In this document: piece by piece, positions 40,901 to 57,193 of the stretch
Layout: each line of letters begins with the position of its first letter
Numbering within the stretch: position 1 is the stretch's first letter
DNA from: an uncultured Chloroflexia bacterium
GTDB lineage: Bacteria; Chloroflexota; Chloroflexia; QHBQ01; JADMIH01
Direction of reading: 5' to 3'
Length of the DNA stretch: 64,000 nt
Assembly: GCA_963797095.1 (NCBI GenBank)
Contig: CAWCNY010000002.1
Span: forward strand, 1-64,000
Made by a program: the position numbers and the translations under genes
The notes under the pieces: generated by a model
Databases searched by the model: none
Told to the model about the DNA's origin: nothing
Seen by the model: the letters and a program-made list of their open reading frames with translations, nothing else

Positions 40901-41689
40901 AAGAGCCAGGGCGGTATTGGCATCTTCCCGCGCCAGGTAGAGCACATCGTTGGTGGCGACGACTGGAATGCTCAGGTTATTGGCAAGCGCAATCAAGGCT
41001 GGGATAGCTGCTGTATCGTCCCGACCAAGAGCGGTAAGCTCGATAAAGAAGTTGCCCTCACCGAAGGCCGACAGGAACATACCGGCTACCTTCGCCGCTC
41101 TTTGGGACTTACCTTGCATCACCAGCGAGTTGACCAGACCGCGCCTCCCACCTGACAAAGCAATCAATCCCCTGACATGGCGTCCTGAGAGGATCATCTC
41201 TCGTGGCAGACGCACTGCTTTGAGAGGGCGGTGAGCAAGCTGTGTGCTTTGGGGAGGCGGTTTACCGGGGCGAGGTGTGAAGCCGAGCACAGGCACCCCC
41301 CATACGCCGGGTTCCCACGCCGGAATCTCGCCGCCATATTCAGTATCCTCATCGTCGTCATCGAAGCCAGCAGGAGTGAAAGCTTCGGGGTCTGAGTTGA
41401 GGCGTAGGACAGTAGAGAGGTGACATAGGTTGCGATAGCCGTCCATATTGCGAGCCAACAAGACTACGCTGGAGCCATCGTCCAGGTCAACGGACATGCC
41501 GATTATCGGTTTTATGCCAGCTTTTTGGGCGTGTATGTAGAAGGATACCGCACCATAGAGGTTATTACGGTCGGTGAGACTCAGCGCGGGCATATGTAGC
41601 TTCTTTGCTGAGCCTATCAGGTTTGGGGGCGTGGCAGTGCCTTCCAGTAGGGAGAATGCGGAATGGCAATGCAGATGGACGAACCCCAT
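37967..41689 (-). CDS. dnaE2: DNA polymerase III alpha subunit, error-prone DnaE2-like
   Basis: PHP HLHCHSAFSLLEG, RGSAADS, LLFERFLS, PDIDLD, KMDLLG, GCFQLESPGMR, FCAAHA, OB fold; LexA-like box upstream. Confidence 0.85.
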   Translation of the reverse strand: MGFVHLHCHSAFSLLEGTATPPNLIGSAKKLHMPALSLTDRNNLYGAVSFYIHAQKAGIKPIIGMSVDLDDGSSVVLLARNMDGYRNLCHLSTVLRLNSDPEAFTPAGFDDDDEDTEYGGEIPAWEPGVWGVPVLGFTPRPGKPPPQSTQLAHRPLKAVRLPREMILSGRHVRGLIALSGGRRGLVNSLVMQGKSQRAAKVAGMFLSAFGEGNFFIELTALGRDDTAAIPALIALANNLSIPVVATNDVLYLAREDANTALALASARIGARGRASLDAPDIFETAHGQYQEGNSLTDEVGTERYFKSAEEMVELFSAYPQGAQAIANTQFIADQCNLELPLHKPLFPSVDLQGSETPFSRLWKLCFAGATRRYRPLTQDVIARLKYELEVIESLGFSPYFLVVYDIVHFAHSRDIPIMARGSAADSLVAYVLGITQIDPLQHDLLFERFLSRERAEFELPDIDLDLCWRRRDEVLHYVYERYGRDHAAIVGTHITFRLRSAWREMAKAMGVTPGRISYIANRLSHISQQERDEEAEAETGLESMDGIDGIDEPGTEAADTYSEEASAPRLSGEHEQRAFELARAIQGLPRHAGMHCAGVVITPSHIPLADLVPLQRAARDPSMSITQYEKDAIEALGLVKMDLLGSRALTTLVDALRASGLAKGSDSVGQALEAIPFDDERTYRMIANGDTLGCFQLESPGMRGLVKWLRPHSLGELAMAVSLFRPGPLEGGFLETFMRRHLGQAPVTYPHPSMEPLLKETNGVILYQEQFLKLVHQLAGLGLGEAEQLRKALGKAGSAEERARLGSRFVAGAIERGIDQLRAEKVWEIVSGYSGFGFCAAHAHTYALTAYRSAYVKAHYPAEYIAAMLNNQGGYYGPSVYVEDARRLRVRLLLPHINESGAWCEVPPATRSIRFGLQFVKGVSEKTISALLTERRSGGHFRSVLDLMSRVQMSPTEITALVKVGACDDLGSSVPFPLPSIPSISSVASIAPLPGEMGEPIGAVYSPHSLSSMNRRQMMALLPQLLFARKPARQANRNSLTHLSVATGSEGAVGLGMQGVMGDILQRQDSASPRILGDDTLRIEMPHVEEYTAIEKLRLEQEVVGFSLTCNEMELIEVPEAVPSKELHRYAEREVKVAGIAAAGHRHTCKDGSVMLFLTLQDRYGLIETVLFPDAYKAHIEVLAKGGNGPYLVSGRAQITGKGRAIGVQPPSDLQLADAVALKMHPVVVVEKIRLLNSEG

Positions 41690-41788: not shown

Positions 41789-41949
41789 AGTCAATAGGTG
41801 GGGCTTTGATTCGTGGAATATTGCCTGGCTGCCTTAAATCGCAAAATCGCCAAGTCATCAACTGAATCAACGTGGTGCAATCGTGAATAGTCAGGAAAAA
41901 TCGGGGAGAATCGGAATTATCGTCTGTATTTACGCACAAAACTTGGCTT

Positions 41950-41996
41950 TGGCGCGCCCGGAGGGATTCAAGCCCCCGACCCTCTGATCCGAAGTC
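41950..41996 (-). repeat. tRNA-Arg 3'-half copy (att site)
   Basis: tggcgcgcccggagggattcaagcccccgaccctctgatccgaagtc, one mismatch to 47498-47544. Confidence 0.93.
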
Positions 41997-42146
41997 CGCC
42001 AGATGGGTCATTTCAGCTAATAGCAGTATGCAGAATTGTATAATTGCATGGAGTTTTGTGCTTCAAGCCGACTGTTTCAGCTAATGATTGTACCAGGCTG
42101 GATGGGGCTATACAGGGCTATGTAATTCCCGTTGCTACACCTGTTG

Positions 42147-42266
42147 CTACACCTGCGGACTTATCTGAGGGACTCGATTCTGTCGTACCCACTGCCTTGC
42201 TGCTTCGTGGTGCTCGTCATCTGGAATAGCATAGGCGAATAAAGCGCCGGTGTCGACAAAGATCAT
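42147..42266 (-). pseudogene. Truncated VapC/PIN toxin (39 aa)
   Basis: Manual translation MIFVDTGALFAYAIPDDEHHEAARQW...; ATGA overlap with upstream antitoxin; stops inside the arm-like repeats. Confidence 0.75.
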
Positions 42267-42565
42267 GGTTTCATTTCGTGCTTAGGGTAGAGGATATCAT
42301 CGTGATGCGCTGATATTTCTGTTCGCCCATCAGGATGCGGAATATAAGGAAGAGCTGCGATTTGATCCAGAACCGCAGCCAATTCCTCGCCCACCAGCAG
42401 GTTTCTGCCGCTTGTGCCCTTTACTCCCCTCTTGGTCGTCGCCCCTTGACCGGCAGCTGGGATTTGTTGAACAACAATCATCTCCACCCTCGCGCCTTCC
42501 GGCAACTCAATCGGGCCGAGCGGGCGGAAAACACCATTCTCGTAAACTGCTCTGATCGATACCAT
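42263..42565 (-). CDS. DUF104 / AF2212-like antitoxin
   Basis: MVSIRAVYENGVFRPLGPIELPEG. Confidence 0.8.
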   Translation of the reverse strand: MVSIRAVYENGVFRPLGPIELPEGARVEMIVVQQIPAAGQGATTKRGVKGTSGRNLLVGEELAAVLDQIAALPYIPHPDGRTEISAHHDDILYPKHEMKP

Positions 42566-42809
42566 CGGAATGCCTCCTGGTAGCGTTTCGGCGGTTGTCT
42601 GCACTCCACGCTTGTACACCATTCTGTTCCGATTATATCACAGCCCAGGCAGGAGATGACATTATGTCTCACACCTTTTACAGGTACAACCGCCTGTATT
42701 GCTCAAATCGCACCAGCCTCTCATTCTCAATGACCACTATCGGGGTCACTGTCTTGATCCCCGTCTGTGAAGTGATATGTTCAGTTCGGATGGGTTTACC
42801 TCTTGCAGG

Positions 42810-43427
42810 TTATTCAGCATCGAGCACATCATCGACCCGCATTGAGAAATCAGCCAGGAGAGCGGAAGTTGCACGCTCACCGTGATGAAACACTCCGTGT
42901 TCCGTATACTTTGCGCCATTCAGCTTCAGGATAGTGACGGTGCCATTCATAGGATCGACGATCCAATATTCGTTAATATGCGCCTCGGCGTAGTCGACGC
43001 GTTTTACTCGAATGTCTCGCGCCGGATCATCGGGACTGACGATCTCCACTACCAAATCGGCACCGAGCCAATAGACTTCCTGATTGCGGGGATCATGAAC
43101 GTCGCACAGGATGAGGAGATCCGGTTCGCGGAATTTGCCAGGACGGATCTGCAACCGCAATGGTGCATAGAAGACTGTGCCACCGCGCGGTTGCACGAAG
43201 GCCAGCAAAGCCAGGAAAAGAAACCGAGAGATCGCCTGATGTTTGCGAGTCGGCATCGGCAATACCTCAATCACTCCATCCGTGAACTCGATGAGGCGCT
43301 TTGTTTGCTGGGTCAGGCGTAGATACTGCTCCTCGCTCCACAATCCTTGCAGTGAGTCGAGATCGATCTCTGTGGGTTCGCCAGCCAGCAGCATCTGCAT
43401 CATGGGAGCCTGCAAATTGGTAGCCAT
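42810..43427 (-). CDS. Uma2 family endonuclease
   Basis: IEFTDG..EVLPMP..KHQ, REPDL, LVVEIVSP, EYWIVDP. Confidence 0.92.
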   Translation of the reverse strand: MATNLQAPMMQMLLAGEPTEIDLDSLQGLWSEEQYLRLTQQTKRLIEFTDGVIEVLPMPTRKHQAISRFLFLALLAFVQPRGGTVFYAPLRLQIRPGKFREPDLLILCDVHDPRNQEVYWLGADLVVEIVSPDDPARDIRVKRVDYAEAHINEYWIVDPMNGTVTILKLNGAKYTEHGVFHHGERATSALLADFSMRVDDVLDAE

Positions 43428-43543
43428 TAGTACTCCTCATCATACTCAAGTATCATTACGGTTGGCATTATTATGCTTTTCGGTCTGTTAGTATAATAAC
43501 GTGGACCGCTGCCCTCTCCAGGTGGGTGGTCACTACCCTCCTG

Positions 43544-44161
43544 CTACACACTCCCTGCTTCCCCTGCTGCGTCCAGGTCTTGCCAGTTTCTGCCCCTCAG
43601 TTGTTCCAGATCGTCGCCGGTCCAACCCAATGCCTCGCGCAAGAACGTGCCTGAAAGCAGCACCCTCAAGCGCTTGCGCAACTCCTCGGTGGTCTCGTCC
43701 TGGACGGTGAGGTCCTTATCCTCGCTCACCAGGTAATCGACCTTCGCGTTGATGGCCACCAAAGCTACAGGCACGTTGGTGACATCCCGCACAAGGTCGG
43801 CGCGAGCAGACACTTCGTCCGGCGTTGGGTCGGCAGCGATCTCGATCTCCGTGCGGGCGACAAACTGCTCGAACCGCTGAAGATGTTCCGGAAAGCTCTT
43901 TGCTAGGATTCTGCGAGCCTGAGCGAGCACATATGGGCTAAGCACGATCTGTATCTCTCCCCTCGATCTGGCTAACAGCACTTCGCGGGGCCAGCGCGAC
44001 CAGCCACTGCCGGCCACAAGCACCGTAGTGTCGAGCATTACCCTGATCCGCCCTGTTCCCTCTCCTTGCTCCGGTTCTCCTCGATCTTCCCGCGCTCCCA
44101 GTCCTTCCCTATCTGATGGAGGCGGGTTAGGTGAGTCAGGTGAGTTAGCGTCGACTGCCAT
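43544..44161 (-). CDS. PIN-domain toxin (PIN_3 type)
   Basis: VMLDTTVLV, DYLVSEDKDL; overlaps upstream antitoxin. Confidence 0.82.
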   Translation of the reverse strand: MAVDANSPDSPNPPPSDREGLGAREDRGEPEQGEGTGRIRVMLDTTVLVAGSGWSRWPREVLLARSRGEIQIVLSPYVLAQARRILAKSFPEHLQRFEQFVARTEIEIAADPTPDEVSARADLVRDVTNVPVALVAINAKVDYLVSEDKDLTVQDETTEELRKRLRVLLSGTFLREALGWTGDDLEQLRGRNWQDLDAAGEAGSV

Positions 44162-44483
44162 ATTGCTTGTCGAAGACCTCGCGCTTAGCCTCTTCCAGGT
44201 CCGCCATCAACTCCTCTTCGCTTATGCCTCTTTCTTCAAGTTCCTTACCAAAGGCTCGGCTGAACCTGTCGAACGCGGCGACAGCTTGCTCACGCCTCAA
44301 TTTCTCGTACTCCTGGTAAGACAATATCACGGCCACCGGGTAGCCGTCGCGCTCCACGATCAGGTGCTCGTCCGACCGAAACACCCGCCTGAGCAGCTTG
44401 CCAAACGACCTGTGACCCTCCGAAGCTTTTACTATCGCTTGTCGCATGTAACCACCTTCCTGCGCAATCCTGTTCGTATCCAT
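44145..44483 (-). CDS. Phd/YefM family antitoxin
   Basis: FGKLLRRV...LIVERDGYPVAVILSYQEYE. Confidence 0.85.
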   Translation of the reverse strand: MDTNRIAQEGGYMRQAIVKASEGHRSFGKLLRRVFRSDEHLIVERDGYPVAVILSYQEYEKLRREQAVAAFDRFSRAFGKELEERGISEEELMADLEEAKREVFDKQYGSRR

Positions 44484-44540
44484 ACGTATCGTTACATATT
44501 ATAACACTACTTGCTTCGTCCTGCTTCTCTGCCTTTTCCC

Positions 44541-44825
44541 CTAAAGCAGGTCCCGATAGGGGTCAATATCCTCCATCTGGAGGTCCTCAAGCGGGATGCC
44601 GAACGCCCGCGCCTGCTCCTGCATCAGCGCGATCACCTCGAAATACGCTAGTAGCCTTATACTGTGGAACTCCCTCCACCCCGCGTCTTCCGGACCCCCA
44701 CCCAACTCCTTCTCCGCTCTCGCGTCGAGCGCCCGCTCTTTCACCAGCCTTCCCAGGTCCGCCAGGTAGTACTTACAAGCGCTACCATTCGAGCTACGCC
44801 TCATGCCCGCTCCCCTCGCTTCCAT
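44541..44825 (-). CDS. Small hypothetical protein, immunity-protein-like
   Basis: RLLAYFEVIALMQEQARAFGIPLEDL; family assignment from memory only. Confidence 0.5.
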   Translation of the reverse strand: MEARGAGMRRSSNGSACKYYLADLGRLVKERALDARAEKELGGGPEDAGWREFHSIRLLAYFEVIALMQEQARAFGIPLEDLQMEDIDPYRDLL

Positions 44826-44898
44826 CTGCCCCTCCTCTTACCCGTAGACCCTTTCCATTTCCTCAGGAACGCTATCCGCATGTCAATCAGCCTGCGCC

Positions 44899-45303
44899 CT
44901 AGCCCGAACCGGACCCACTTCTCAAAGTCGCCCAGGCCCACCTGCCTGTATCCAAAAGCCTCCACCCGTACTCCCGCGCTTCTTCCAGTACCTTCTCTAG
45001 CGCGTCCAGCAGCGTCTCCCTCGATATGTGGCTGACCACCAGTAGCCCCAACTCCACCCAGGCGATTTCACCTTCACGCTCCAACTGCTCCTTGATGTAC
45101 TCCGGCGTTCGTGCCGCGAACCCATAGCCTCGCCCATCCTTCATAGTCACCAGGAAAGTGTAGTAGCGGTAGTCCGGGACGTACACTCCCTCTTCTATAT
45201 CCCGTAGAACCTCCGGATGCTCCTCCTCGCGGGAAAATGCGTAGTATAACCTGACCTCAGCGATTTGCTCGTTGATCAGCTTATATTTCGCCAGATCTCC
45301 CAC
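44899..45303 (-). CDS. Hypothetical, Imm8-like immunity protein (start and C-terminus uncertain)
   Basis: GF.ARTPEYI...LGLLVV.HIS pattern. Confidence 0.4.
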   Translation of the reverse strand: MGDLAKYKLINEQIAEVRLYYAFSREEEHPEVLRDIEEGVYVPDYRYYTFLVTMKDGRGYGFAARTPEYIKEQLEREGEIAWVELGLLVVSHISRETLLDALEKVLEEAREYGWRLLDTGRWAWATLRSGSGSG

Positions 45304-45574
45304 CTCAGCCTCACCATCTCTTCGGGCACGTCCAGCACCCTGGCCACGTACCCCACCTCCATCCCCTCCATCTCTCCCAGCGCCCTCAGCGGCACCAGCA
45401 AATACGCCGCCGCATAGTCGCACTGCCTATCCTGCACCCTCTCCACCAACTCGGCGAACGTGCTCTGCAACGCCCACCCTCACATCTCATCCTCTTCAAC
45501 TCCAGGTCACCCCTATGGTGGCCCATCAGCAGATGCGCCATCTCGTGCGCTATCACATACTGCCGTCGTGCCAA
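45276..45574 (-). pseudogene. Frameshifted ImmA/IrrE metallopeptidase fragment
   Basis: RRQYVIAHEMAHLL (HExxH) in one frame, QCDYAAAYLLVP...VARVLDVP in another. Confidence 0.7.
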
Positions 45575-45657
45575 TTCCTCGACCTCTCTCAGTCGTGAAA
45601 TAGAAGTGTTACAGAAACGGGACTGTATGAGCCATTCACGGGAATCTCCAGGTTTGA

Positions 45658-47073
45658 TTACGGCTCATTGCCCCACCGGTAGCCTTCCGGCGGCAGGCTT
45701 ATATTGACTGCCACTCGGTCGGCCCTGGCTTTGGCTTCACCGACGTGGGCTGTATAGCTGAGCCTACCGGCCAACATCAACGGATAAAGCCCCATCTCCG
45801 GATAATCGAGCAGGGTACGGTGGGCGCTGAAGAACTGGTTGAGAGCCTCGATTGCCAGCGTTAACGCCCTGACCTCCCGCTCGCTTGGCCTTATCGGTTC
45901 ACTATGCGCCACCAGCCTGTGGAATGAAGGCACGGCTTCTCGCGATGGGTATTTCAGCTTTCGCTCGGCCAGCCAGCTCAGATAGGTCGGATCGCTCTCT
46001 TCTTCGGGGTCGAAATAGAGCAGCAGGCTGTCCTCAATGGCTTCCAGGTATTCTTCTTTGTCCATAGATTCGTCCGCTTCTTCGCCTACTTCGTCGTCTG
46101 TAGCGATGCCTTGAGCCTCCATCATCGTAGATAGCATCTCACGCAGGGCCTCCGGTGGTACTTCATCCACCGGCGCACCCAACTGCCGCATCAACTCTAT
46201 CAACTCGCCTACTCTCTGATCCGCTTTCTCAATCGGCTTATCTATTGATGCTTCTGCATCTACCGCTGTTTCTGCCACTTCGCGCTCCATGCGCGCCTCA
46301 CCGCGCTGTAAGATGCGCTCGAAAGCCTCAAGGGAATAGTAGAAAGCCACGCCGTATACTTCACCGGCGTTGCCGAGAACAACAGCGTAGAGGGTTTCTA
46401 CATCCTGTTGGGGTCCGTGTCGACCCAGTTCAATGGCGATCGGTAGATCACTGCCCATGTATTCCCACGGGGCACGACGCCAATAGCTGGCCGCCGCCTT
46501 GTAGAGAGGTGGTAGTAGTACTTCAGCAATAATCCACTCAAAAGGCTCAGGCGGATCCTTCCCGGCGTCCCCATTGGCGCCCAGTGCTGCGGACAGGTCG
46601 CGAAATGCTTCTTCATAGTCCGGCAAGTGTTCTGCATATTCAATGGGTATGCCGAGAGGAGCAAGCAAATGGCGCGCGGCCTCGGCCAGCACTGGATCGT
46701 TGATTATTATCCTCGTGGGAAGGCCAGGTTCGGGTGAGGGGAAGGGAATTGCAACAGGGGTAGCCACCGGCCTGGCAAGAGCCTCTACAAGTAGTTGAAG
46801 CGATTCGGTGATTCCGTCATCGCTGCTTTCGGCGGGGTTGATCAGCTGAACAGCACGGACGAAGCCGCTATCCGCCTCCACCCACAACGCTATCTGCGGT
46901 TGAACGGCCTGCTTATTTTCATAGATGTATACCCCCAATGGCCGCTTTCCACCCTGGATCACTAAACCGCTACGGCGCGGCAAGGTCGCCAATTGCGCAA
47001 TGATCGCTTGCAATCCGGTTGGATTGAGAACTTTCCGCTTAGTTCTTGCCATGGCCGGCGGCCCCCCTTTCAC
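45658..47073 (-). CDS. Hypothetical protein (471 aa)
   Basis: Long ORF; LYKAAASYWRRAPW...VLGNAGEVYGVAFY; acidic middle region. Confidence 0.7.
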   Translation of the reverse strand: MKGGPPAMARTKRKVLNPTGLQAIIAQLATLPRRSGLVIQGGKRPLGVYIYENKQAVQPQIALWVEADSGFVRAVQLINPAESSDDGITESLQLLVEALARPVATPVAIPFPSPEPGLPTRIIINDPVLAEAARHLLAPLGIPIEYAEHLPDYEEAFRDLSAALGANGDAGKDPPEPFEWIIAEVLLPPLYKAAASYWRRAPWEYMGSDLPIAIELGRHGPQQDVETLYAVVLGNAGEVYGVAFYYSLEAFERILQRGEARMEREVAETAVDAEASIDKPIEKADQRVGELIELMRQLGAPVDEVPPEALREMLSTMMEAQGIATDDEVGEEADESMDKEEYLEAIEDSLLLYFDPEEESDPTYLSWLAERKLKYPSREAVPSFHRLVAHSEPIRPSEREVRALTLAIEALNQFFSAHRTLLDYPEMGLYPLMLAGRLSYTAHVGEAKARADRVAVNISLPPEGYRWGNEP

Positions 47074-47437
47074 GCTGTGCTCGGTTACCAGATTATTCTA
47101 CACTTCATCGATTGCATTGCCCAATATCACAATATCATACGAGACCTGAGCCAGATTCCTGGATTGCTCGCCGGTGGGATTACTCCGATTTAGATTATTC
47201 ATGACTTGATACGAAATGGACTATTTCGAACATCGCCGGGCTGGCGTCGCCGAGAGTTGAATTACAGCGCTGGCGATTGTACCACACTTCGATTTACTCG
47301 AACATCGACTATTTTCTCACCTGAGCTCCTGCAATCCCATTATCCACCTCGATCGTCTATCTTGGAGCCTAGCACGCATAACCCCGCACTTTTATCCGGT
47401 TGCTACACTTGTTGCTACACCTGGACCTGAATTGCTA

Positions 47438-47467
47438 CAAAAATACGCCGGAACAGCGTTCCGGCGT
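47438..47467 (-). terminator. Intrinsic terminator downstream of tRNA-Arg
   Basis: acgccggaac-agc-gttccggcgt stem followed by ATTTTT on the minus strand. Confidence 0.75.
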
Positions 47468-47497
47468 CGCTTTTCGTGCGTAAATCTGCTACCAAAA

Positions 47498-47574
47498 TGG
47501 CGCGCCCGGAGGGATTCAAACCCCCGACCCTCTGATCCGAAGTCAGATGCTCTAGTTCGCTGAGCTACGGGCGC
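47498..47574 (-). tRNA. tRNA-Arg(TCG)
   Basis: GCGCCCGTAGCTCAGCGAACTAGAGCATCTGACTTCGGATCAGAGGGTCGGGGGTTTGAATCCCTCCGGGCGCGCCA: full cloverleaf, TCTGA/TCAGA anticodon stem, encoded CCA. Confidence 0.95.
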
Positions 47575-47699
47575 AGGACTACACAGACTTTTAGCTTTTC
47601 TAGGCGTAAAACGAGGGTCAAGAAGGTGCTACTGCTCTCGAAATTAGCCGATGGTTTGACATGCTCAATCTGATTAGATGCTGTGTCAAACCACTATTT

Positions 47700-47728
47700 A
47701 GCTTACTAAACTAGCTCATTTGTGTCAA
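47700..47728 (-). promoter_or_regulatory. Element-borne sigma70 promoter for the reconstituted tRNA
   Basis: TTGACA-17bp-TAAGCT; similar to 59375-59403. Confidence 0.75.
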
Positions 47729-47731
47729 GAC

Positions 47732-48110
47732 GCCCGGAGCATCTGAATCGTCTGAGGGCAAGCTCGAAGTATCTCGCTTGGCTAGGGGTCGGGGGTTTGA
47801 ATCCCTCCGGGCAGCCTTTAGTGACCGTACAGCTATCAATCTCCCAAAATCGGTCGGCTGGACTTCGATGCGGGCCTACAGCCCGCAAGTAATAGGATGT
47901 GGCCCCCCCCGGGGTTGGGGCCCCTCAAATCTGTCTGCACCGACCCTGTGGAAAAGTCGGATGCGCTTGACATAGTGTCGTAACATGCATCCAGCACAAA
48001 GAGCCAGGACGGGCTTTGGCGGGCAAGCCCTGGCTCTGAGTGCGGGTTGCGACTTTCGTCGCTTCTCTTACATACGTGCGGCTGAGGAGCACGCAGGCAA
48101 CAGGTGTTGC
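47732..48110 (+). ncRNA. Candidate structured ncRNA or single-strand origin starting with a tRNA-like domain
   Basis: Inverted tRNA-Arg T-arm/acceptor copy at 47786-47812 plus about 9 consecutive hairpins; no convincing ORF; strand uncertain. Confidence 0.4.
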
Positions 48111-48222
48111 AACGGGGAGTATAACACAGTAGACATGAGCTAACAATGTGGAAAAGGTGGAAAACTCGAACCTGTGACATCACTTGCGTGTTCTGACGCC
48201 GCTAGCTGAACGGAGAAGAAGC

Positions 48223-48458
48223 ATGAAAATAAGGTTTGAGACGGAGTACAGAATTGGGGGCCGCAAGGTATCGCAACGCGAATGGTTGGACCATATGCTA
48301 AGCAAGCAGCCGAACGGATTGCCCGGAACTGTGAGGCAAGAATTAGGTGCCCGGAGCATGGGAAGCCGCCCAAGGTGACATATCTTGGGGGGAGGTTCCA
48401 TATCGAGGGGTGCTGTGAGAAGGTAGTTGAGTTGACGAAACGTGCGCTGAGTCGTTGA
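48223..48458 (+). pseudogene. Small frameshifted gene with CPEHG...GCC motif
   Basis: MKIRFETEYRIGGRKV... continues in another frame as RIRCPEHGKPPKVTYLGGRFHIEGCCEKVVELTKRALSR*. Confidence 0.55.
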
Positions 48459-48647
48459 TATTGCCAGTGGGCAGAACTAGGGAGAGCAGGACCGCCACCT
48501 GCTCCCTTTGGTCTGCATACAACAACTAGTGTTGGTTTGTAGTATATTATTGTAGCGATGCACATCCTTGTGGCGAAGTTGCAGTGACAAAGGATTTCCC
48601 GGTACTTTTCGGCGTTCGTGTGGCGGGCGCTGTTCTACGAGGTACAC

Positions 48648-49856
48648 ATGACTCACCAAAGTATTATCAGCTTGGATGACATTCTTGCTCTTGTGGGCAA
48701 GCTAGACGATACGCCCGGCCTAGACGCGCCCAGGGAGCGTTTTCGTAATCACCTACAGAAGATAGTGGAAGTAGGGCAGCTTCGCGACTATGTTGAAACT
48801 TGCTTGAGGGCTTCAGGGGAGCAGTACGCACGCGCTCTCCAAGACTTAGTGAACTATGCAGGCAACTTCTTTGGTTTCCATGTGACCTATGGTAGGTACC
48901 AAGGAATATCTGGCGAACATAACTTTGATGGACGCTGGGAGGCTCCCGGCGGCCTCCATATAGTCATTGAGACCAAAACCACGGAAATCTACCCAATCAA
49001 AACGAGCAAACTTCTAAACTACATCAACGAACTGGTTGCTGCTGGGCAAATCCCCAAACAAGAGGATGCCTTGGGTCTGTATGTGGTAGGCCATCCGGAC
49101 CCTGAGATACAGCAACTAGAAAACGCAATTGTGGTGCAAAAGCCGATTCCGAATTTGCGAATTGTGTCGGCCCTATCCTTGCTGTCGCTGGCTGAGATGC
49201 GACAAGCCTATGGGCTCAATGATGATGACGTGTTAAGCATCCTCCTGCCCTCAGGGCCACGAATTGACCCACTCATAATGCTTATTGACCGCCTGGTGGC
49301 TGAAAGAGAAGCGGAAGCAACGATGGCGAGTGAGCAGAAGGTAATAAGGACAACAGTCGAAAAACTGGGGCTGCCGGAACCTACTTTACAAGCCTCCAAG
49401 TTTGTCATTCCCGATACAGGCACCATCACCTTCTGGATTACCCCGGTTAGAGACGATGAAGGGGAGACTGCAGAACAGACCATTCAGAGGCTGGTGGGCG
49501 AAGAGCATATTTACGCTTTCGGAGAGAAAACGCCCGGTCGTAGGAAGATAAAGTCGGGCGACGTGATTTGTTTCTATGCTGCGGGGCGTGGTGTCATTGC
49601 AGATGCTAGAGTAACATCGCCCCCAATAAAGAGGCCACACCCGCGGGTCAAGCAACCGGACAAGTATCCGTGGGTGTTTCGCATAAAGGATACACACCTC
49701 TATTTGGAAAACCCGGTTGTCATTGACGGGGCACTAAGGAGTCAACTTGACAGGTTCCAAGGGCGCGACCCAAACGGGCCTTGGGCATGGTTTGTTCAGG
49801 CTACACACGATGTTTCACAGCACGATTTTGAACTTCTAACACGACAGAAAGGCTGA
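48648..49856 (+). CDS. PD-(D/E)xK restriction-like nuclease fused to C-terminal EVE/PUA-like domain
   Basis: FDGRW...IVIETKT nuclease core; FWITP...IKSGDVICFY...GVIADARV...YPWVF EVE pattern. Confidence 0.72.
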   Translation: MTHQSIISLDDILALVGKLDDTPGLDAPRERFRNHLQKIVEVGQLRDYVETCLRASGEQYARALQDLVNYAGNFFGFHVTYGRYQGISGEHNFDGRWEAPGGLHIVIETKTTEIYPIKTSKLLNYINELVAAGQIPKQEDALGLYVVGHPDPEIQQLENAIVVQKPIPNLRIVSALSLLSLAEMRQAYGLNDDDVLSILLPSGPRIDPLIMLIDRLVAEREAEATMASEQKVIRTTVEKLGLPEPTLQASKFVIPDTGTITFWITPVRDDEGETAEQTIQRLVGEEHIYAFGEKTPGRRKIKSGDVICFYAAGRGVIADARVTSPPIKRPHPRVKQPDKYPWVFRIKDTHLYLENPVVIDGALRSQLDRFQGRDPNGPWAWFVQATHDVSQHDFELLTRQKG

Positions 49857-49858
49857 TT

Positions 49859-52800
49859 ATGCCGGCGCCACAATCCATCCTTTCCCACATTGAGCGCTTC
49901 GACAATGACCGACAAGCCTACAAATCCGGCGTCTATAATGAGGCGCAGGTTCGGCGCGAGTTCCTGGACCCCTTCTTCAAGGAGCTAGGCTGGGATGTAG
50001 AGAATGAAGGTGGTGCGGCGGTTGCCTACAGAGACGTAATTCATGAAGACACGTTGAAAATCGGTGAGACTACGAAAGCCCCGGACTACTCATTCCGCAT
50101 AGGCGGCACTCGAAAGTTCTTTGTTGAGGCCAAAAAGCCGTCTGTCAACTTGGATACGGACCCTAGACCAGCTTACCAACTGCGGCGCTATGCCTGGTCT
50201 GCAAGCCTACCCCTAAGCATCCTCACCGATTTCGAGGAGTTCCTGGTTTATGATTGTCGAATAAAGCCGGACGCCTACGACGGTGCGCGGGTGGCCCGCG
50301 CCATGTATCTCAAATACACGGAATATGCGGATAAGTGGGACGACATTGCCGCGCTCTTCTCTCGCGAGGCCGTGCTCGCCGGGTCGCTTGACAAATATAC
50401 CGAATTGCTTAAGGCCAAGACAGGCTCGTCCACTGTTGATGCTGATTTCCTAAAGGAGATTTCAGTCTGGCGCGAGATGCTAGCACAAGACTTGGCAGCG
50501 CGGAATCCGCACCTAACTCAACGCGACCTCAATTATGCTGTGCAGATGACTATCGACCGTATTATTTTCCTGCGTATTAGCGAAGACCGGGGCATTGAGC
50601 CATATGGCAGATTGCTGGAAGCACAACAGGGAGAAAGAGTGTATGCGCGGCTGTGTCGGCTCTTCGAAGCTGCCGACGACCGCTACAATTCGGGCCTGTT
50701 CCACTTCCGCGACGAGAAGGGCCACAACGAGCCGCACGATGAGCTAACCCCGGCACTGACTATACACGACGACACACTCCGGCGTATCATCACCCGCCTT
50801 TACTACCCCGATTCGCCCTATGCCTTTTCAGTCATGCCGATTGAAATTCTGGGGCAGGTTTACGAGCAGTTCCTGGGCAAGGTTATTCGCCTGGACGAAT
50901 CTCGTAATGTTGAGGTTGAGGAGAAGCCAGAAGTACGCAAGGCGGGCGGCATCTACTATACGCCCACATACATCGTGGATTACATCGTAAAACAAACTGT
51001 CGGCAAACTCCTGGAAGGCAAGACGCCGAAGCAAGCCGTCGACTTTCGTATTGTGGACCCCGCGTGCGGCTCCGGTTCATTTCTCATCGGCGCATACCAA
51101 TACCTTCTCAACTGGCATCGCGACTGGTATGTGGCTGACGGCACACAGAAGCACAAGAAGGAGCTTTATGAGGCTTCAGGAGGCGAGTGGCGACTAACTA
51201 CGAATGAGCGCAAAAGGATACTACTAAATAACATTTATGGCGTGGATATCGACCCCCAGGCGGTAGAGGTCACAAAGCTCTCACTCCTGCTTAGAGTGCT
51301 TGAGGGAGAAACCGGACAAACCTTGGCAACGCAGCTGCGGATGTTCTACGAGCGGGCGCTGCCGGACCTGAGCAGCAATATTAAGTGCGGTAATTCCTTA
51401 ATAGGTTATGATTTCTACAGCGCGACACAGGCCAGCTTTCTGTCGCCGGAGGAACACAGCCGCATCAACGTGTTCAACTGGCACGAGGCTTTTCCCCAGG
51501 TGTTCAAGCGCGACAGCTCTGGATTTGATGCTGTGATTGGCAACCCGCCGTACATTCGTATCCAGACTATGCAGGAGTGGGCTCCCGTAGAAGTCGCACA
51601 CTACAAGCGACGATATGTTTCGGCCAGCAAAGGCAACTACGACGTGTATGTTGTGTTTGTGGAGAAGGGACTTTACCTGCTCAATAAGGGCGGACAACTT
51701 GGCTTCATCCTGCCCCACAAGTTTTTCAATGCTCAGTATGGCGAGCCGCTGCGCGCCCTGTTGGCACAGGGGCACCACTTAGCTGAAGTGGTGCATTTTG
51801 GCGACCAACAGGTGTTTTCAGGCGCGACGACCTATACCTGCTTGCTCTTCCTTGAAAAACGCGGCTCCTCTGAAGTGCAGATTGCCATGGTTGAGAATCT
51901 GGACCAGTGGCGCAGGAAGTCCCAGGCTGTGTACGGAACGGTTCCAGCAGAAGCTATTGCACCTTCTGACTGGAATTTCTATGTCGGAGAGGGTGCTGAC
52001 TTGTTTGGCAAGCTAAGACAGGTGCCAACAAAACTGGGTGCTATCGCGGAACGCATTTCGCAGGGGATTCGTACAAGCGCCAATGAGGTGTACGTGCTCA
52101 ACATCGTGGACCAAGCGACCGATGTACTAATCGTCCATTCACAGTCGTTGGGTAAGCAGGTGGAGGTCGAGCGGGCCGCGGTGACACCCTTCCTTCAAGG
52201 CCGCGAAATCAAGTCATATAGGGTACTTCCTTCCGGTAAGGTGGTGATTATCCCTTATCACCTGGCGAATGGCCGCGCAAAGCTCGTTCCCGAGGATGAA
52301 ATGAAGACTCGTTTCCCGCTCACTTTGGCCTATCTTGTTGCAAATAGGGCATACCTAGAGGAACGGGAACGGGGCAGGATGCATGGCTCGTCCTGGTATG
52401 CCTTCGTCTATCCAAAAAACATCGAATTGATGAAGTCGGCCAAGATTCTTGTGCCGGACATTGCCGATAGAGCAGCATTTGCACTAGATGAAGCCGGCGA
52501 ATACGCCTTCACAAGCGGTTATGGCATTACATTGAGACCTGATGTTAGCTTGTCGCCCAACTATGTTTTGGGCCTACTGAACAGCAAAGTCCTGGACTTC
52601 TACCTAAAGCGTGTCAGCACGACTATGCGCGGCGGCTTTTTCCGATACTTCACACAGTACGTTGAGCAATTGCCGATGCGTGCTATCAATTTCGCTGACC
52701 AGGCCGACAAAGCCCGACACGACCACATGGTATCACTTGTAGCACGGATGGTAGACTTTTACAGACAATCAGCCGTTGCCAAGACACCGCACGACAAGAC

Positions 52801-52909
52801 TGCAATCCAGCGCCAGATAGACGCCGCCGACGGGCAGATAAACTCCCTTGTGTACGAGCTTTATGGGCTGACAGATGAGGAAATCCGAATTGTTGAGTCG
52901 GATAAATAG
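49859..52909 (+). CDS. Type IIG restriction-modification fusion (Eco57I-like, N6-adenine MTase, TaqI-C TRD)
   Basis: PDY...VEAKK, GIYYTP, DPACGSGSFL, IGNPPY, LGLLNS. Confidence 0.93.
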   Translation: MPAPQSILSHIERFDNDRQAYKSGVYNEAQVRREFLDPFFKELGWDVENEGGAAVAYRDVIHEDTLKIGETTKAPDYSFRIGGTRKFFVEAKKPSVNLDTDPRPAYQLRRYAWSASLPLSILTDFEEFLVYDCRIKPDAYDGARVARAMYLKYTEYADKWDDIAALFSREAVLAGSLDKYTELLKAKTGSSTVDADFLKEISVWREMLAQDLAARNPHLTQRDLNYAVQMTIDRIIFLRISEDRGIEPYGRLLEAQQGERVYARLCRLFEAADDRYNSGLFHFRDEKGHNEPHDELTPALTIHDDTLRRIITRLYYPDSPYAFSVMPIEILGQVYEQFLGKVIRLDESRNVEVEEKPEVRKAGGIYYTPTYIVDYIVKQTVGKLLEGKTPKQAVDFRIVDPACGSGSFLIGAYQYLLNWHRDWYVADGTQKHKKELYEASGGEWRLTTNERKRILLNNIYGVDIDPQAVEVTKLSLLLRVLEGETGQTLATQLRMFYERALPDLSSNIKCGNSLIGYDFYSATQASFLSPEEHSRINVFNWHEAFPQVFKRDSSGFDAVIGNPPYIRIQTMQEWAPVEVAHYKRRYVSASKGNYDVYVVFVEKGLYLLNKGGQLGFILPHKFFNAQYGEPLRALLAQGHHLAEVVHFGDQQVFSGATTYTCLLFLEKRGSSEVQIAMVENLDQWRRKSQAVYGTVPAEAIAPSDWNFYVGEGADLFGKLRQVPTKLGAIAERISQGIRTSANEVYVLNIVDQATDVLIVHSQSLGKQVEVERAAVTPFLQGREIKSYRVLPSGKVVIIPYHLANGRAKLVPEDEMKTRFPLTLAYLVANRAYLEERERGRMHGSSWYAFVYPKNIELMKSAKILVPDIADRAAFALDEAGEYAFTSGYGITLRPDVSLSPNYVLGLLNSKVLDFYLKRVSTTMRGGFFRYFTQYVEQLPMRAINFADQADKARHDHMVSLVARMVDFYRQSAVAKTPHDKTAIQRQIDAADGQINSLVYELYGLTDEEIRIVESDK

Positions 52910-53201
52910 CCGGGGGTCAGAGACCAAGACCATCAACACCAGAACGAAAGCCCAAGAGAATCAAACGCAGCCTATATAGCTCTATGGTATGAGGTGTTGT
53001 GAGTTCACGACGTGGAACATTGCCTCAATGTCATTGTCAGCGCCCGCCTCCTTGAATAAGGCAATTGCCTCATCCGGCGTGCATAGGCCGTATTCTCGAA
53101 AGAAGGCGGTCGTAAAGTGCCAATCAGAAGGGCCAGATTTTTCGCCGTATTTCGTCTTGCGCCCCACAACATCGGCGAAAGCAACAAGGTCGCATAGCTC
53201 A

Positions 53202-53558
53202 CTAAGCCGCTTTAGCGCAGGATGAAGAACGCGGGGCGTTTTTGTAGGTATAGGCACGCTGCTTGTGTCGGCTCCAGGTCTTGTGTCGTTTCTTATGGCA
53301 TTTTGTACAAAGAGTACGAAGGTTGTCAAGCTCATTGTTGCCTCCCAAGCACAACGGGATAAGATGGTGGACCTCAAGGCGGCAGTTGCGCTTCTTGCAA
53401 TCCCTGCAAGTGAAGTGGTCGCGCAGGAGTGCCAAGCGGCGGATGGCGCGCCAATTGCGGCCTCGTGCAGCACGCCTACACTTGTCGGAGCAATATGCGT
53501 GAATATGGCTCTTCGGTGAGAAATCGGTTCCGCAACTTCGACATTTCTTGGTATTCAT
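53202..53558 (-). CDS. HNH endonuclease with N-terminal Zn ribbon
   Basis: CRSC, YCSDKC, RDHFTCRDC, EVHH...GGNNELDNLRTLCTKCH. Confidence 0.9.
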   Translation of the reverse strand: MNTKKCRSCGTDFSPKSHIHAYCSDKCRRAARGRNWRAIRRLALLRDHFTCRDCKKRNCRLEVHHLIPLCLGGNNELDNLRTLCTKCHKKRHKTWSRHKQRAYTYKNAPRSSSCAKAA

Positions 53559-53584
53559 CGTGCCGCCTCCTCATTTGTACCTGT

Positions 53585-53613
53585 ATTATACCAGTACAAA
53601 ACGTACTTGTCAA
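53585..53613 (-). promoter_or_regulatory. Consensus sigma70 promoter for the HNH gene
   Basis: TTGACA-17bp-TATAAT on minus strand. Confidence 0.85.
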
Positions 53614-53691
53614 GGGGTTTGCGCAATATTGCTCGAAATTGGTCGGTCATAGTTTGGCAGCATGACGAGCAAAGCTAAATGTAAGAGCCTC

Positions 53692-53720
53692 TTGACAATT
53701 TAGTTTCTTACCTGTATAAT
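53692..53720 (+). promoter_or_regulatory. Consensus sigma70 promoter for the RHH-like gene
   Basis: TTGACA-atttagtttcttacctg(17)-TATAAT. Confidence 0.85.
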
Positions 53721-53752
53721 ACCTGCATGATATATTTGAGGAGGCATGACAA

Positions 53753-53953
53753 GTGGTAGAAAAGAACCCCAATAAGGGCGGCAGACCTCGCAAGGACACA
53801 CATGCAAGGCAGTTCCCCCTTTACATCTACATGATGGACGAGGAGAGCCTGCAGCAGGTCAAAGAAGCAGCAGAGCGACAAGGGCTTAGCTTCAGCACCT
53901 GGGCACGGACCGTACTGGTAAGAGAGGCACGGCGCATCTTGAGCGGCGAGTAA
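53753..53953 (+). CDS. Small AT-hook + ribbon-helix-helix-like DNA-binding protein
   Basis: GGRPRK; AAERQGLSFSTWARTVL; GGAGG RBS; paralogue at 59577. Confidence 0.75.
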   Translation: MVEKNPNKGGRPRKDTHARQFPLYIYMMDEESLQQVKEAAERQGLSFSTWARTVLVREARRILSGE

Positions 53954-54120
53954 TTGCCCAAATCGCCCCGCATATTGTAGAGACCCCCCGGTAACTTTCC
54001 ATTTGCCTTTCGGCAATTGTGTGGCCCCCCGGTTCTCTACTTGCCGCTACGCGTGTGACGCGACCCCAAAGCGGCCAACATAAGCACAACACGGAGGGAA
54101 ATGGTTATTAGTGCGGAGAT

Positions 54121-54402
54121 GTGCCCCTGGCGCTTATCCAGTCGTCAAGAGGAGGTAGTTTGTTGGAAACTTTGGAAGCAACGCCTGAAGTATGTGAGTC
54201 GCTCATATTCGATGCGCGTAACCGGCTAATGCTGGCCTATCTAGCTCGTGAAGATGGTGTTTCGGGCGCTTACGAGCGCTTGGAGGTCGAGCGTTGGCGG
54301 GTCAACCTGATGGAAAGCGAGATGGGGCGCCCCTGCCTCCCTGTGCTGACTGAGTTACGCGCATCGGGACAGCAGATTTATCTATTGGACCTTGACGATT
54401 GA
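54121..54402 (+). CDS. Hypothetical protein
   Basis: ORF with GGAGG RBS before the internal TTG at 54162. Confidence 0.45.
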   Translation: MPLALIQSSRGGSLLETLEATPEVCESLIFDARNRLMLAYLAREDGVSGAYERLEVERWRVNLMESEMGRPCLPVLTELRASGQQIYLLDLDD

Positions 54403-54987
54403 GCGCAGCGCCCCGCAGACCTGTGCGATAATGGGCACCGGGTCGGGGTAGCCATACTTACGCCGGGCGATTATGCAGTTATCGGGGAGCGTGTCAAGAG
54501 CAAATACCCTGAAAGATGATTGCTCCCCCCGATTGAAGCGTAGCCGCCCCGGCTCCGTTCCTGAACGCTGAACATAGTCTGCATGCCAGGCAGCGAAAAG
54601 CCTGAGGTCTATTATCGTCCAGGCTACGAGGCCGCTCTCATCAGGCGACTTGAACCCGTAGAACATCACATCACCTTCGCCATCAAGTATCTTGCCAAGC
54701 TCTGTTCGCCTTCCGCTTGGCACACTGGCGCGCAGAGTGATTTCACCTACATATCTCAGGTAGTCGTAAGCGCGTAGCCTAACTGCGATTCTCCGGTGGG
54801 GAAGGATTGCGTCGGTGTTCTTGTGTCGGTCAATATGAAGGGGCGCGCGTTGGATAGTGTACCGCCCGACAAGCGCGCCGATTTCCGGAAGTAGCATGTC
54901 GTCGCGAGACTGCTCAACGCGGCGGTCAACGTCGGCAACTTGATACAGTAACTGTCTTTGGAGCGTGGGTAATTCGGTGTCAATCAT
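54382..54987 (-). CDS. Hypothetical phage/island protein, possible PD-(D/E)xK fold
   Basis: TD...IAVRLR...EITLR...TELGKILDGEGDVMFYGF. Confidence 0.6.
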   Translation of the reverse strand: MIDTELPTLQRQLLYQVADVDRRVEQSRDDMLLPEIGALVGRYTIQRAPLHIDRHKNTDAILPHRRIAVRLRAYDYLRYVGEITLRASVPSGRRTELGKILDGEGDVMFYGFKSPDESGLVAWTIIDLRLFAAWHADYVQRSGTEPGRLRFNRGEQSSFRVFALDTLPDNCIIARRKYGYPDPVPIIAQVCGALRSIVKVQ

Positions 54988-55103
54988 ACTTAGTTCCTCA
55001 GTTCGATATGTGGGGCATAGTTAAGCCCCTAGTTGTAGTTCTAGGGGCAGCCAGCGAGCGGAATCCATTACTTGCTTCTAGTATTCATTACTTGCTTCCG
55101 CCC

Positions 55104-56618
55104 CTATACTCTATAAGGAGAATCCATCGGGGCATATTGCCTGTAATTACCGGGAAGGAAAAGCTTTGTTCGTCTCCCTCTGCCTGCAGCGACATCAAGC
55201 TGCTTGCCACTCGCATCACGAGCGTAGGCAACTATCCGCTTGAGCAGCAGGTTCTTCATAGCTTCTTGACAACGCTTCTGGGGAAGGGCGCACCAGGCCT
55301 CTAGGAATTGCCAGCTAAGGGGGGCCGGGTCACCATAGGTGTGGAGCCACCGCGCTTGGAAGAGAAGGTTGAGCTTGTCATAGACTATGCGGGTGTCTGC
55401 CTCGTCCAGCTCGTATGGCAGGGCTGGAAGTTGGACGCGAGCCGGTTGCACATACCCTGTCTCGACCATGAGGCGCAGATGCCATGTGACGGACCCTGAT
55501 TTGCTGGGACGCACCTCCTCAGGTGAGCGTGGGCGACGCAATGCAAGGGCATACGCGACTTCCGACATGAGAAGCGCCGGGCTTGCATCTGGCCGCACAT
55601 GGAAGTCTCTATAGACATAGACGCCATTCTGGCCGGGATAGATGCTTGCGGATGGACCATTCTCCTCGTGGCCCGGCAAGACACAAAGGAACGTCTTTCC
55701 GAAGGGCACATCAGGGATACCCATAAGCCTACATGCCGCCCGGATGAAGTCCTGGTCGCGGCTAGCATCTGTGAGGTACTCACCAACTAGGCCCCCCTCA
55801 GTTCGGGCGCACTCTGCTATGCGCTGTAGCGCAGCCTTGCGCTCCTGGAGCAAGTTGGGCATGATGAGGCTCTTCTGTGACTGCCTCCTGTTGGCATCGC
55901 TGCGGCCTGTGCTTGGCACTCTTGACCTACCTTCGGCCTGCATCAGCTTCTCAGCGAGCCAGTCGGGTAGACAAAGGGGCGGGCGCTCGTGAGGCCCGAA
56001 ACTTGCAAGCCAGGTGTACCGCCTGCCGGACTGGTGAAGGGAAGGCGGCAGTACCAGATAGCCGCCAACGCCGCGCACATCTACTCCGGGAGCCACTTTG
56101 CCGTTTGAAGCGCTAATGTATCGCCCCCCAGTCGAGAAGAAGAGATGCTCACCCCAACCTTCGCGACCGCTGCGGGCCTTTACGGTCTCTGTGAAGGCCG
56201 GGCCATGCTTCGCTATCCAGTCGTTCAAGGCCTCTATGCCTTCTTCTCCGTCCAGGTCTATTGCGACAAGATTAGCCCTTGCAGGTACGCACCCGATGCC
56301 GGCGTGCGCCCATCGCGTCCACCATTTGCTTATGACTTCACGGTTTGTGGAGGCATTTTTCAGGTAGTCTTTGATAAGGGGCTTTTTGTTGACGCTGTCC
56401 ACCGGGAATACTGGTATTCCGGCTTGGGCGTATGCGAGTGCCCACTCTAGCATATCAGGTGATTCGGTCTGGGTAGGGAGATAAGGAATTGGCTTCGTCT
56501 GCGTTATATTGGGTGCCGCCCCTGTCTTCACCGGAGCATAAGGGCGAACTCTTGGGCGGGTTGGTCGTGTAGTAATTGCGAGTGTCATTTGGCCCCCTAT
56601 TGTGGGCAGGTGCTCCAA
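55104..56618 (-). CDS. Bifunctional DNA primase/polymerase (Prim-Pol) replication protein
   Basis: ALAYA..GIPVFP, KKP, LVAIDLD, GEHLFF, VDVRG.GGYLVLPPS.H.SG.RY.W. Confidence 0.88.
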   Translation of the reverse strand: MEHLPTIGGQMTLAITTRPTRPRVRPYAPVKTGAAPNITQTKPIPYLPTQTESPDMLEWALAYAQAGIPVFPVDSVNKKPLIKDYLKNASTNREVISKWWTRWAHAGIGCVPARANLVAIDLDGEEGIEALNDWIAKHGPAFTETVKARSGREGWGEHLFFSTGGRYISASNGKVAPGVDVRGVGGYLVLPPSLHQSGRRYTWLASFGPHERPPLCLPDWLAEKLMQAEGRSRVPSTGRSDANRRQSQKSLIMPNLLQERKAALQRIAECARTEGGLVGEYLTDASRDQDFIRAACRLMGIPDVPFGKTFLCVLPGHEENGPSASIYPGQNGVYVYRDFHVRPDASPALLMSEVAYALALRRPRSPEEVRPSKSGSVTWHLRLMVETGYVQPARVQLPALPYELDEADTRIVYDKLNLLFQARWLHTYGDPAPLSWQFLEAWCALPQKRCQEAMKNLLLKRIVAYARDASGKQLDVAAGRGRRTKLFLPGNYRQYAPMDSPYRV

Positions 56619-56669
56619 ACGCGCCTGCCCTTCAGTGCTTTAAATCTGCAGTACGGCGAACTTTTCGCT

Positions 56670-57079: not shown

Positions 57080-57096
57080 TGCGTCCTCCTAATTCT

Positions 57097-57193
57097 GTAA
57101 CTGGATACCTATATTTATCCCCTCTACTTAATCAAGCAGGTTCGTATTCGTAACTGGATACCTATGTTTCCCCCTTCTACTTAATCAAGCAGG
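57097..57193. repeat. Two 44-bp imperfect direct repeats, period 53
   Basis: gtaactggatacctat...tctacttaatcaagcagg at 57097-57140 and 57150-57193. Confidence 0.9.

Follow-up and report, generated by a model that had tools for sequence, protein, structure and literature searches.

In the part of one review that treats recombinant tRNA genes (PMC8371274), those of bacteria are said to keep their original promoter 'with very few exceptions', and use of the tRNA 5' half as a target is described as typical of archaeal pTN3-like integrases and as 'seldomly encountered in bacteria'. For the pTN3-like elements of Thermococcales, the same part of the review gives the tRNA 5' half as attB and has the restored tRNA expressed from a promoter of the element, and a second paper (PMC5495485) reports that the pTN3 integrase also makes inversions between att sites. 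Here we examine a 379-nt tract (47732-48110) in a 64-kb window, the whole stretch of DNA analysed, from an uncultured Chloroflexia bacterium. The tract lies in an 11.75-kb integrative element with a prim-pol gene (element C) at a gene for tRNA-Arg(TCG), and we give a probability of about 0.5 to the reading that it is the integrase-distal recombination and regulatory arm of this element, which would replace that gene's 5' half.

The scheme that we propose is built on the observed anatomy of the locus, its repeats, their statistics and one related architecture in another genome. The element would insert in the anticodon-loop region of tRNA-Arg(TCG) and swap both the 5' half and the promoter of the gene. 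An inverted copy of the target tRNA at 47731-47812 would be left over from an earlier recombination state, and a palindrome at 47862-47886 would serve as an accessory binding site whose inverted counterpart is found in the integrase-proximal arm, an arrangement known for arm-type sites of tyrosine-recombinase attP regions. Lastly, 47963-48112 would be a promoter-proximal hairpin block of the regulatory region of the element, which might act as RNA made from a minus-strand promoter, as a transcription barrier or as an origin.

The geometry of the element is the firmest part of this scheme. A 41-nt direct repeat (47535-47575 and 59286-59326, 100% identity) contains the att core and the tRNA 5' half; it spans tRNA positions -1 to 39 and ends in the anticodon loop. 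One copy belongs to the intact minus-strand tRNA-Arg(TCG) gene (47498-47574; called by ARAGORN and by Rfam RF00005 with 63.9 bits), and the other is a displaced 5' fragment, the only one that any of the 71 tRNAs of the genome has. Moreover, displaced fragments of any kind within 120 kb are seen for this tRNA alone. A minus-strand gene for an Xer-like tyrosine integrase (57933-59168; Pfam Phage_integrase, 5.9e-29; NCBIfam XerC/XerA-like models below cut-offs) has its ATG 117 nt from the displaced fragment. Because of the 41-nt repeat and the position of the integrase beside the displaced fragment, we place the intact tRNA at the integrase-distal end of the element body (47576-59285, delimited by repeats and family searches), with its 5' 41 nt (47535-47575) and its upstream region supplied by the element. 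The locus thereby combines three traits of pTN3-like elements, namely a repeat of the tRNA 5' part, an intact gene distal to the integrase, and a predicted element promoter block, here shared with the remnant of a second element (remnant D).

The upstream region also departs from that of relatives in the same genus. At their empty sites (14 loci; the comparison holds without L012 and L016, from unpublished genomes), tRNA-Arg lies 70-110 nt from the homologue of a TPR gene (60179-63538 in the window), and a TGNTATA(A/C)T promoter lies 10-25 nt upstream of the tRNA. This native TGNTATAAT-type promoter is absent upstream of the tRNA-Arg(TCG) considered here. What is found there is a minus-strand promoter-like block (47695-47730, TTGACA-17-TAAGCT) that is 81% identical to 59370-59405, a segment upstream of the displaced 5' half. 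A consensus promoter scan did not flag the block, which we regard as a putative promoter. It ends 1 nt from the inverted tRNA copy (hereafter the pseudo-tRNA), so that a preliminary description of the tract, which had placed it next to the tRNA promoter of the element, is upheld as far as a predicted promoter goes. Minus-strand RNA running through both the pseudo-tRNA and the tRNA would lock the tRNA 3' half in a duplex of ~31 bp (folding z -8.44). The most likely start for transcription of the tRNA is therefore downstream of the pseudo-tRNA, in keeping with the position of the 47695-47730 block. As for the integrase gene, when the element is integrated the displaced tRNA 5' half and the promoter-like block that belongs to it are both upstream of this gene.

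Element C is one member of a stack of at least four insertions at this locus, together with remnant D and two 3'-type islands. The 850 nt between the displaced 5' fragment and the TPR gene are non-native and contain an RHH-like open reading frame (ORF) 53% identical to one in element C, and for these reasons we consider 59327-60178 to be what is left of an older element of the same kind. The ORF of remnant D (59577-59795) is accompanied by a promoter-like site, TTGCCA-18-TATAAT, and the native tRNA promoter of the relatives is gone. Across the tRNA, displaced 3' fragments at 41950-41996 and 37772-37817 mark the two islands, both of the ordinary 3' type. Since the 3' repeats overlap the 5' repeat by GACTTCGGAT, the anticodon loop is the crossover region common to both types.

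Related elements are few. At E <= 1e-40, the integrase recovered eight of 301 genomes of the class, its own included; at E <= 1e-50, its own genome alone was recovered from 401 genomes of the phylum. Metagenome contigs gave only one relative, with 30% identity, viral contigs searched with integrase and prim-pol gave none, and a search of genome contigs with the 412-aa protein of the element found one 49% relative in a different context. One related element, of 4.8 kb, is found in another genus of the same order (genome G029), whose integrase is 53-54% and whose prim-pol is 37% identical to those of element C. Two exact copies of a 57-nt stretch from the 5' part of tRNA-Phe form its bounds (L032 11801-11857 and 16609-16665), and its intact tRNA, again at the end away from the integrase, is preceded by promoter-like sites of the TTGACA type. 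Two further integrases of the clade, in G038 (53% identical, on a cut contig) and G004 (42%), are encoded directly downstream of intact tRNAs, and in G004 the tRNA concerned, tRNA-Met, has 36 nt of its 5' part repeated 1.2 kb upstream (L033 15346-15381 and 16521-16556). Across this group, the tRNA 5' part and not the 3' part is restored in tRNA-Arg of the window, tRNA-Phe of G029 and the tRNA-Met remnant of G004, and promoter-like sites of their own are carried. Beside tRNA-Phe in G029 there is also a CRISPR-like array (L032 10903-11466) of eight repeats of ~37 nt, 72-75 nt apart.

The comparison of arms bears on a role of the tract in recombination. When 47862-47883 is aligned with the inverted 59244-59265, 18 of 22 positions agree, a score reached by none of 300 dinucleotide shuffles of the distal region. 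The partner site is 21 nt from the core, within the integrase-proximal arm (59169-59285, minus strand), which extends from the integrase ATG to the displaced 5' half. A corresponding pair exists between the arms of the G029 element, where 14 of 14 nt match in inverted orientation and none of 300 shuffles reaches 14. In both elements the distal copy is inside a palindrome, which in element C is GCGGGC-CTACA-GCCCGC with its flank (47862-47886). Two features of attP arms are found here: the site is inside an element with target direct repeats and a tyrosine recombinase, and the motifs are repeated on both sides of the core. Given the inverted match beyond shuffles and the analogous pair in G029, the palindrome and its partner are placed as one would expect of accessory sites bound on both arms of an attP, and the palindrome becomes a candidate site for an accessory protein.

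How well the tract performs as a single RNA bears directly on this reading, as the preliminary description had presented it as a hairpin-dense, non-coding, structured RNA of ~380 nt. Direct reading of the sequence recovered all the strings and all nine stems reported there, each at the coordinates given, and the non-coding claim is sound: the tract ORFs have no Pfam family match and no tblastx support (best E 0.037 when compared with the remainder of element C, remnant D and the G029 element). The hairpin density is real but modest. The tract has 14 perfect stems of 5 bp or longer compared with 8.4 +/- 2.8 in dinucleotide shuffles (14 or more in 23 of 500), as well as 79 paired bases compared with 45 +/- 15 (79 reached in 8 of 500). 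The signal is concentrated in 47963-48112. The idea of one structured RNA fares worse. Folded over all 379 nt, the plus strand gives z -1.32, with 8 of 100 shuffles equally good, and the minus strand z -2.28, with 1 of 100, so that the whole tract folds marginally better than shuffles on the minus strand and no better on the plus strand, the one named in the preliminary description, where it fails the shuffle comparison proposed there. Two of the three 150-nt tiles, 47813-47962 and 47888-48037, are unstructured (z +0.60 to -1.16), leaving 47963-48112 as the seat of the folding signal.

Rfam leads to the same view. No family reaches its gathering threshold in the tract, which supports no described RNA family, and the only match inside 47732-48110 at a relaxed threshold is a weak one to ssnA (18.4 bits against a cut-off of 37.3; Rfam 15). 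Across the window, only an FMN riboswitch and the real tRNA pass. We read the tract as a composite of DNA-level parts and not as one RNA, because of its whole-tract z-scores, the unstructured tiles, the lack of an Rfam family, the failure of the pseudo-tRNA in tRNA models, and stem energies in the hairpin block that are equal on the two strands.

The pseudo-tRNA (47731-47812, plus strand) was delimited by repeat search and by alignment to the neighbouring tRNA. It consists, in order, of CGCCCG, a deletion of ~15 nt in the D arm, GAGCATCTGA, an altered loop ATCG, TCTGAGGG, an insert of ~30 nt that holds a CAAGC/GCTTG stem, and a 27-nt block of T arm and acceptor. That block, GGGTCGGGGGTTTGAATCCCTCCGGGC (47786-47812, plus strand), is a 27/27 inverted match to the T arm and 3' acceptor strand of tRNA-Arg(TCG). 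With up to 3 mismatches allowed, a 26-mer from it is found four times in the window and in none of 100 shuffles. CGCCCG and the 10-mer GAGCATCTGA precede the block in the same order and orientation as in the neighbouring gene. Furthermore, GTTTGAATCCC and GAGCATCTGA occur in this tRNA-Arg(TCG) alone among the seven tRNA-Arg genes of the genome, and the neighbouring gene is therefore the source of the copy. The presence of tRNA-Arg pieces at the start of the tract, as first described, is thus established far beyond chance. One attempt to account for the ~30-nt insert as a second att core (a 'double att core scar') was rejected, since the insert has no significant likeness to the tRNA and 1336 of 2000 shuffles score as well.

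A tRNA mimic or anticodon-nuclease decoy had been offered as an explanation of this copy, and a plus-strand tRNA-like RNA might also act as a processing signal. The perfect T-arm/acceptor block amid otherwise rearranged sequence is what one might expect of such an RNA, and a weak terminator-like hairpin lies on the plus strand at 48049-48062. However, ARAGORN makes no call on 47731-47812 (plus strand), the real tRNA being the only one it found, and cmscan finds no RF00005 match there even at E <= 10. The copy alone folds no better than shuffles (z +0.25), ATCG has taken the place of CTTCGGA in the anticodon loop, most of the D arm is lost, and five acceptor pairs are left with no proper 3' end. 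No plus-strand promoter was found upstream. In addition, an inverted tRNA piece is present in only one of four comparable element ends: element C has it, and remnant D, the G029 element and the G004 remnant have none. We consider a functional mimic or decoy extremely doubtful. The pseudo-tRNA is not a family feature of these elements, and the similarity between element C and remnant D ends exactly at its edge. Turning back to the recombination arm, we infer that the pseudo-tRNA is a non-functional relic of an earlier recombination state of the element.

A second trace of past exchange might be the 17-nt motif GTTGCAACACCTGTTGC on the minus strand at 48097-48113, found by a genome pattern search. 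At up to 1 mismatch it has three copies in the 6-Mb genome, all in this locus, and the other two (42131 and 47399) mark either end of the 3'-type island next door. A search of 300 other genomes of the class gave two occurrences of the pattern and none of a reversed control. One of these outside copies is directly downstream of a tRNA-Arg (genome G001), in sequence 83% like 47386-47517, and the other is within a coding region. The pseudo-tRNA is followed by GTTGCAACACCTGTTGC 285 nt downstream, in the same order and strand relation as the real tRNA and the motif at the left end of the island. Because these relations match, we infer that the pseudo-tRNA and the tract go back to a tRNA joined to the end of a 3'-type island, which the element captured.

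The hairpin block (47963-48112) is a part of the tract with competing explanations. Fold z-scores and an inverted-repeat search define it as a strongly self-complementary block of three to four adjacent hairpins, with stems that include AGAGCCAGG/CCTGGCTCT (9-11 bp) and GCGAC-GAAA-GTCGC. As RNA, it folds with z -2.43 on the plus strand and -4.59 on the minus strand. On the minus strand, 47990-48112 reaches z -5.46, with the minimum-free-energy structure making up 44% of the ensemble and comprising three stem-loops, the GAAA tetraloop hairpin among them; 47945-48112 reaches z -5.01, its 3' end being a hairpin followed by UUUU. For comparison (the z-scores of the tract come from separate runs), a background scan took 150-nt windows at 106 positions in 1-31.6 kb on each strand, 212 in all, and gave a mean z of -0.31 (sd 1.06). 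Only two of the 212 windows fell below -3, both at 14713. This other site (14713-14862; z -5.1 on the minus and -3.1 on the plus strand) is an intergenic gap between minus-strand genes and the only other strong folder in the first half of the window.

A promoter scan found a minus-strand promoter-like sequence, TTGTTA-17-TATACT with a TG extension (TGTTATACT, 48118-48146), whose predicted start near 48110 coincides with the right edge of the tract and which would transcribe into the hairpin block. In its strict form, TGNTATAMT, the motif has 471 genomic occurrences (0.039 per kb per strand), and TGNTANNNT is found within 80 nt upstream of 18 of the 71 tRNA genes compared with a background of 0.046 per 80 nt. 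These data raise the possibility that the block encodes a small structured minus-strand RNA of ~120-165 nt, starting from TGTTATACT near 48110, with the rest of the tract as spacer or relic; such an RNA might be a countertranscript, a regulatory RNA or the start of a long leader. In its favour are a strict extended -10 motif of a type seen upstream of tRNA genes and at the right distance, the strong minus-strand folds with their terminal hairpin and UUUU, and the scarcity of comparable background windows. The energies of the block are nonetheless alike on the two strands (-56.5 and -57.4 kcal/mol, with 3 G-U pairs each) and do not tell the strands apart, as expected of DNA palindromes. Moreover, the scan found no canonical minus-strand terminator, a covariance model of 47990-48112 (minus strand) run on 60 relatives gave a best E of 0.31, there is no Rfam family, and read-through to the tRNA would trap its 3' half in the duplex noted above (z -8.4). 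We regard a small RNA as somewhat unlikely, though deserving of serious attention.

A more elaborate version of this proposal is decidedly less probable. A lineage-specific RNA from TGTTATACT near 48110 could begin with 120-165 nt that form a very stable domain of three to four hairpins. If extended, it would include in its 3' part a perfect 27-nt antisense to the tRNA-Arg T arm and acceptor strand, together with a segment that matches the integrase mRNA in its 5' untranslated region (18/22). If this is true, such an RNA might tie integrase expression to whether the rebuilt tRNA gene is in its integrated or excised state, or might act on read-through pre-tRNA by titrating or destroying it.

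The same block invites comparison with replication origins. In the prim-pol plasmid pRN1 a long stem-loop serves as the origin, and the single-strand initiation (ssi) sites of RSF1010 are hairpins. Element C has a prim-pol gene, and no local inverted repeat in its 12 kb is larger than the one in the hairpin block. In the circular form this block would fall within the largest intergenic region, and it is significantly folded as single-stranded DNA (DNA parameters, z -3.03 and -3.38 on the two strands). A replication origin or single-strand initiation site for the prim-pol would be consistent with these features, but the fold is equally significant on both strands, and family searches found no rolling-circle Rep or relaxase among the element proteins. 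For a single-strand origin, as proposed earlier, one would expect a folded signal on one strand and a rolling-circle Rep, a relaxase or a cognate primase that acts on it. The idea is weakened further by the distance of ~7 kb from the block to the prim-pol operon and by a separate repeat region directly upstream of that operon. This region (57097-57193), between the prim-pol operon and a divergent 143-aa HTH-like gene, has two 44-nt direct repeats that are 91% identical and is likely an operator or iteron region. The surroundings of the block are also not AT-rich (GC 0.548 over 48000-48499), and the G029 element has no similar sequence, its strongest palindrome being right after the prim-pol gene. 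We see only a slim chance that the block is an origin.

It seems appropriate to ask whether the tract does anything at all. A locus with such a stack of insertions could well accumulate recombination leftovers, with palindromes that are coincidental or inherited relics. The searches for homologues agree with this view. In its own genome, the 27-nt T-arm piece is the only part of the tract to recur; in 60 relatives, the T-arm piece alone matches (24 of 61 genomes, counting its own); a plasmid collection gave no match; and a phage collection gave a single 29-nt match, T-arm only. Within the collections searched, nothing of the tract except the T-arm piece is thus found outside this genome, and its whole-tract fold is unremarkable. 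What speaks against inertness is the non-random inverted match between the arms and the recurrence of that layout in G029, the position of the hairpin block in the extreme tail of the background, and an intact strong promoter motif that aims into the block. An inert tract is unlikely.

Several points weigh against our preferred reading of the tract as a recombination and regulatory arm. The hairpin block is as extreme as the best site among the 212 background windows and a good promoter motif points into it, such that an expressed RNA would explain the block no less well than a DNA site does. Protein binding at the palindrome is predicted from sequence, no arm-binding domain is recognised in the integrase (Pfam has no family for its C-terminal 72 aa), and the arm-site architecture is based on two elements. 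A perfect 27-nt T-arm block beside a rearranged remainder is odd for neutral decay and could reflect selection or gene conversion, and the reading does not account for the inverted orientation of the tRNA copy.

The remaining contents of element C begin with small ORFs next to the tract. Two of them (51 and 58 aa, 48223-48458) overlap in different frames after a GGAG ribosome-binding site, have no family match and may represent one frameshifted gene. The 412-aa protein belongs to no known family. Other genes encode a type IIG restriction-modification enzyme (49859-52909), an HNH nuclease (53202-53558), the prim-pol (55104-56618) and small RHH-like proteins (53753-53953 and 56876-57079) with family matches below cut-offs only.

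The neighbouring 5.5-kb 3'-type island (41997-47497) lacks an integrase and encodes a PIN/Phd-YefM pair, a Uma2-family nuclease, an AF2212-like protein and a DUF6930/DUF7309 protein. Tandem GTTGCTACAC(C/T)T motifs are present at both of its ends (42127-42155 and 47395-47423). In genome G017, a flank equivalent to 41854-41996 directly follows the tRNA (84.6% identity over 143 nt). Farther out, the only large gene between the two displaced tRNA-Arg 3' fragments encodes a 1240-aa DnaE-type DNA polymerase III alpha (37967-41689), as if it sat in an old island. The FMN riboswitch (RF00050, 111.6 bits, 37483-37611, minus strand) is upstream of the next minus-strand genes. Outside the window, the genome has a dense array of ~25 tRNA genes on one strand (C2:1272514-1283690), with divergent second copies of tRNA-Arg(TCG) and tRNA-Arg(GCG) among them.

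As a one-off without relatives, the tract is of limited general importance. The setting is less common: a bacterial element family, present in two genera of one order, that swaps in a tRNA 5' half and, because it replaces this half, must carry a tRNA promoter. The 5'-half element described here shares its anticodon-loop crossover with ordinary 3'-type islands on the same tRNA. If the inverted copy and the 17-nt motif are relics of exchange between these two kinds of element, the locus would record how an integrase lineage can switch from restoring one tRNA half to restoring the other.

Compared with the attP arms of tRNA-targeting tyrosine recombinases, the locus likewise has partial-tRNA direct repeats as bounds, a tyrosine integrase at one end, a crossover in the anticodon loop that is common to the 3'-type islands on the other side, and short motifs on both sides of the core. 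Unlike such arms, that of the window also carries an inverted, rearranged copy of the whole tRNA. Displaced tRNA fragments of the usual kind are present in direct orientation, with two 3' fragments (41950-41996 and 37772-37817) and one 5' fragment (59286-59326). The piece in the tract differs from these in being inverted, in lying inside the element and in spanning both tRNA halves, with a deletion and an insert, and simple integration does not yield a piece like 47731-47812. Plasmid countertranscripts such as ColE1 RNA I have several stem-loops. The candidate RNA of ~120 nt resembles them in its three stem-loops and in its own promoter, aimed away from the downstream operon, whereas the replication gene here is a prim-pol elsewhere in the element, and neither a homologue (in 60 relatives) nor a canonical terminator was found.

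The pTN3-like elements share with element C the tRNA 5' half as target, and an inversion of the kind made by the pTN3 integrase would be a possible route, by analogy, to the inverted tRNA copy. They are archaeal and the element here is bacterial, and the two are likened by att geometry and not by kinship of their integrases. Furthermore, in the relevant part of the review cited above, the tRNA of pTN3-like elements is said to use the integrase promoter (PMC8371274), whereas element C has a separate promoter-like block at its integrase-distal end.

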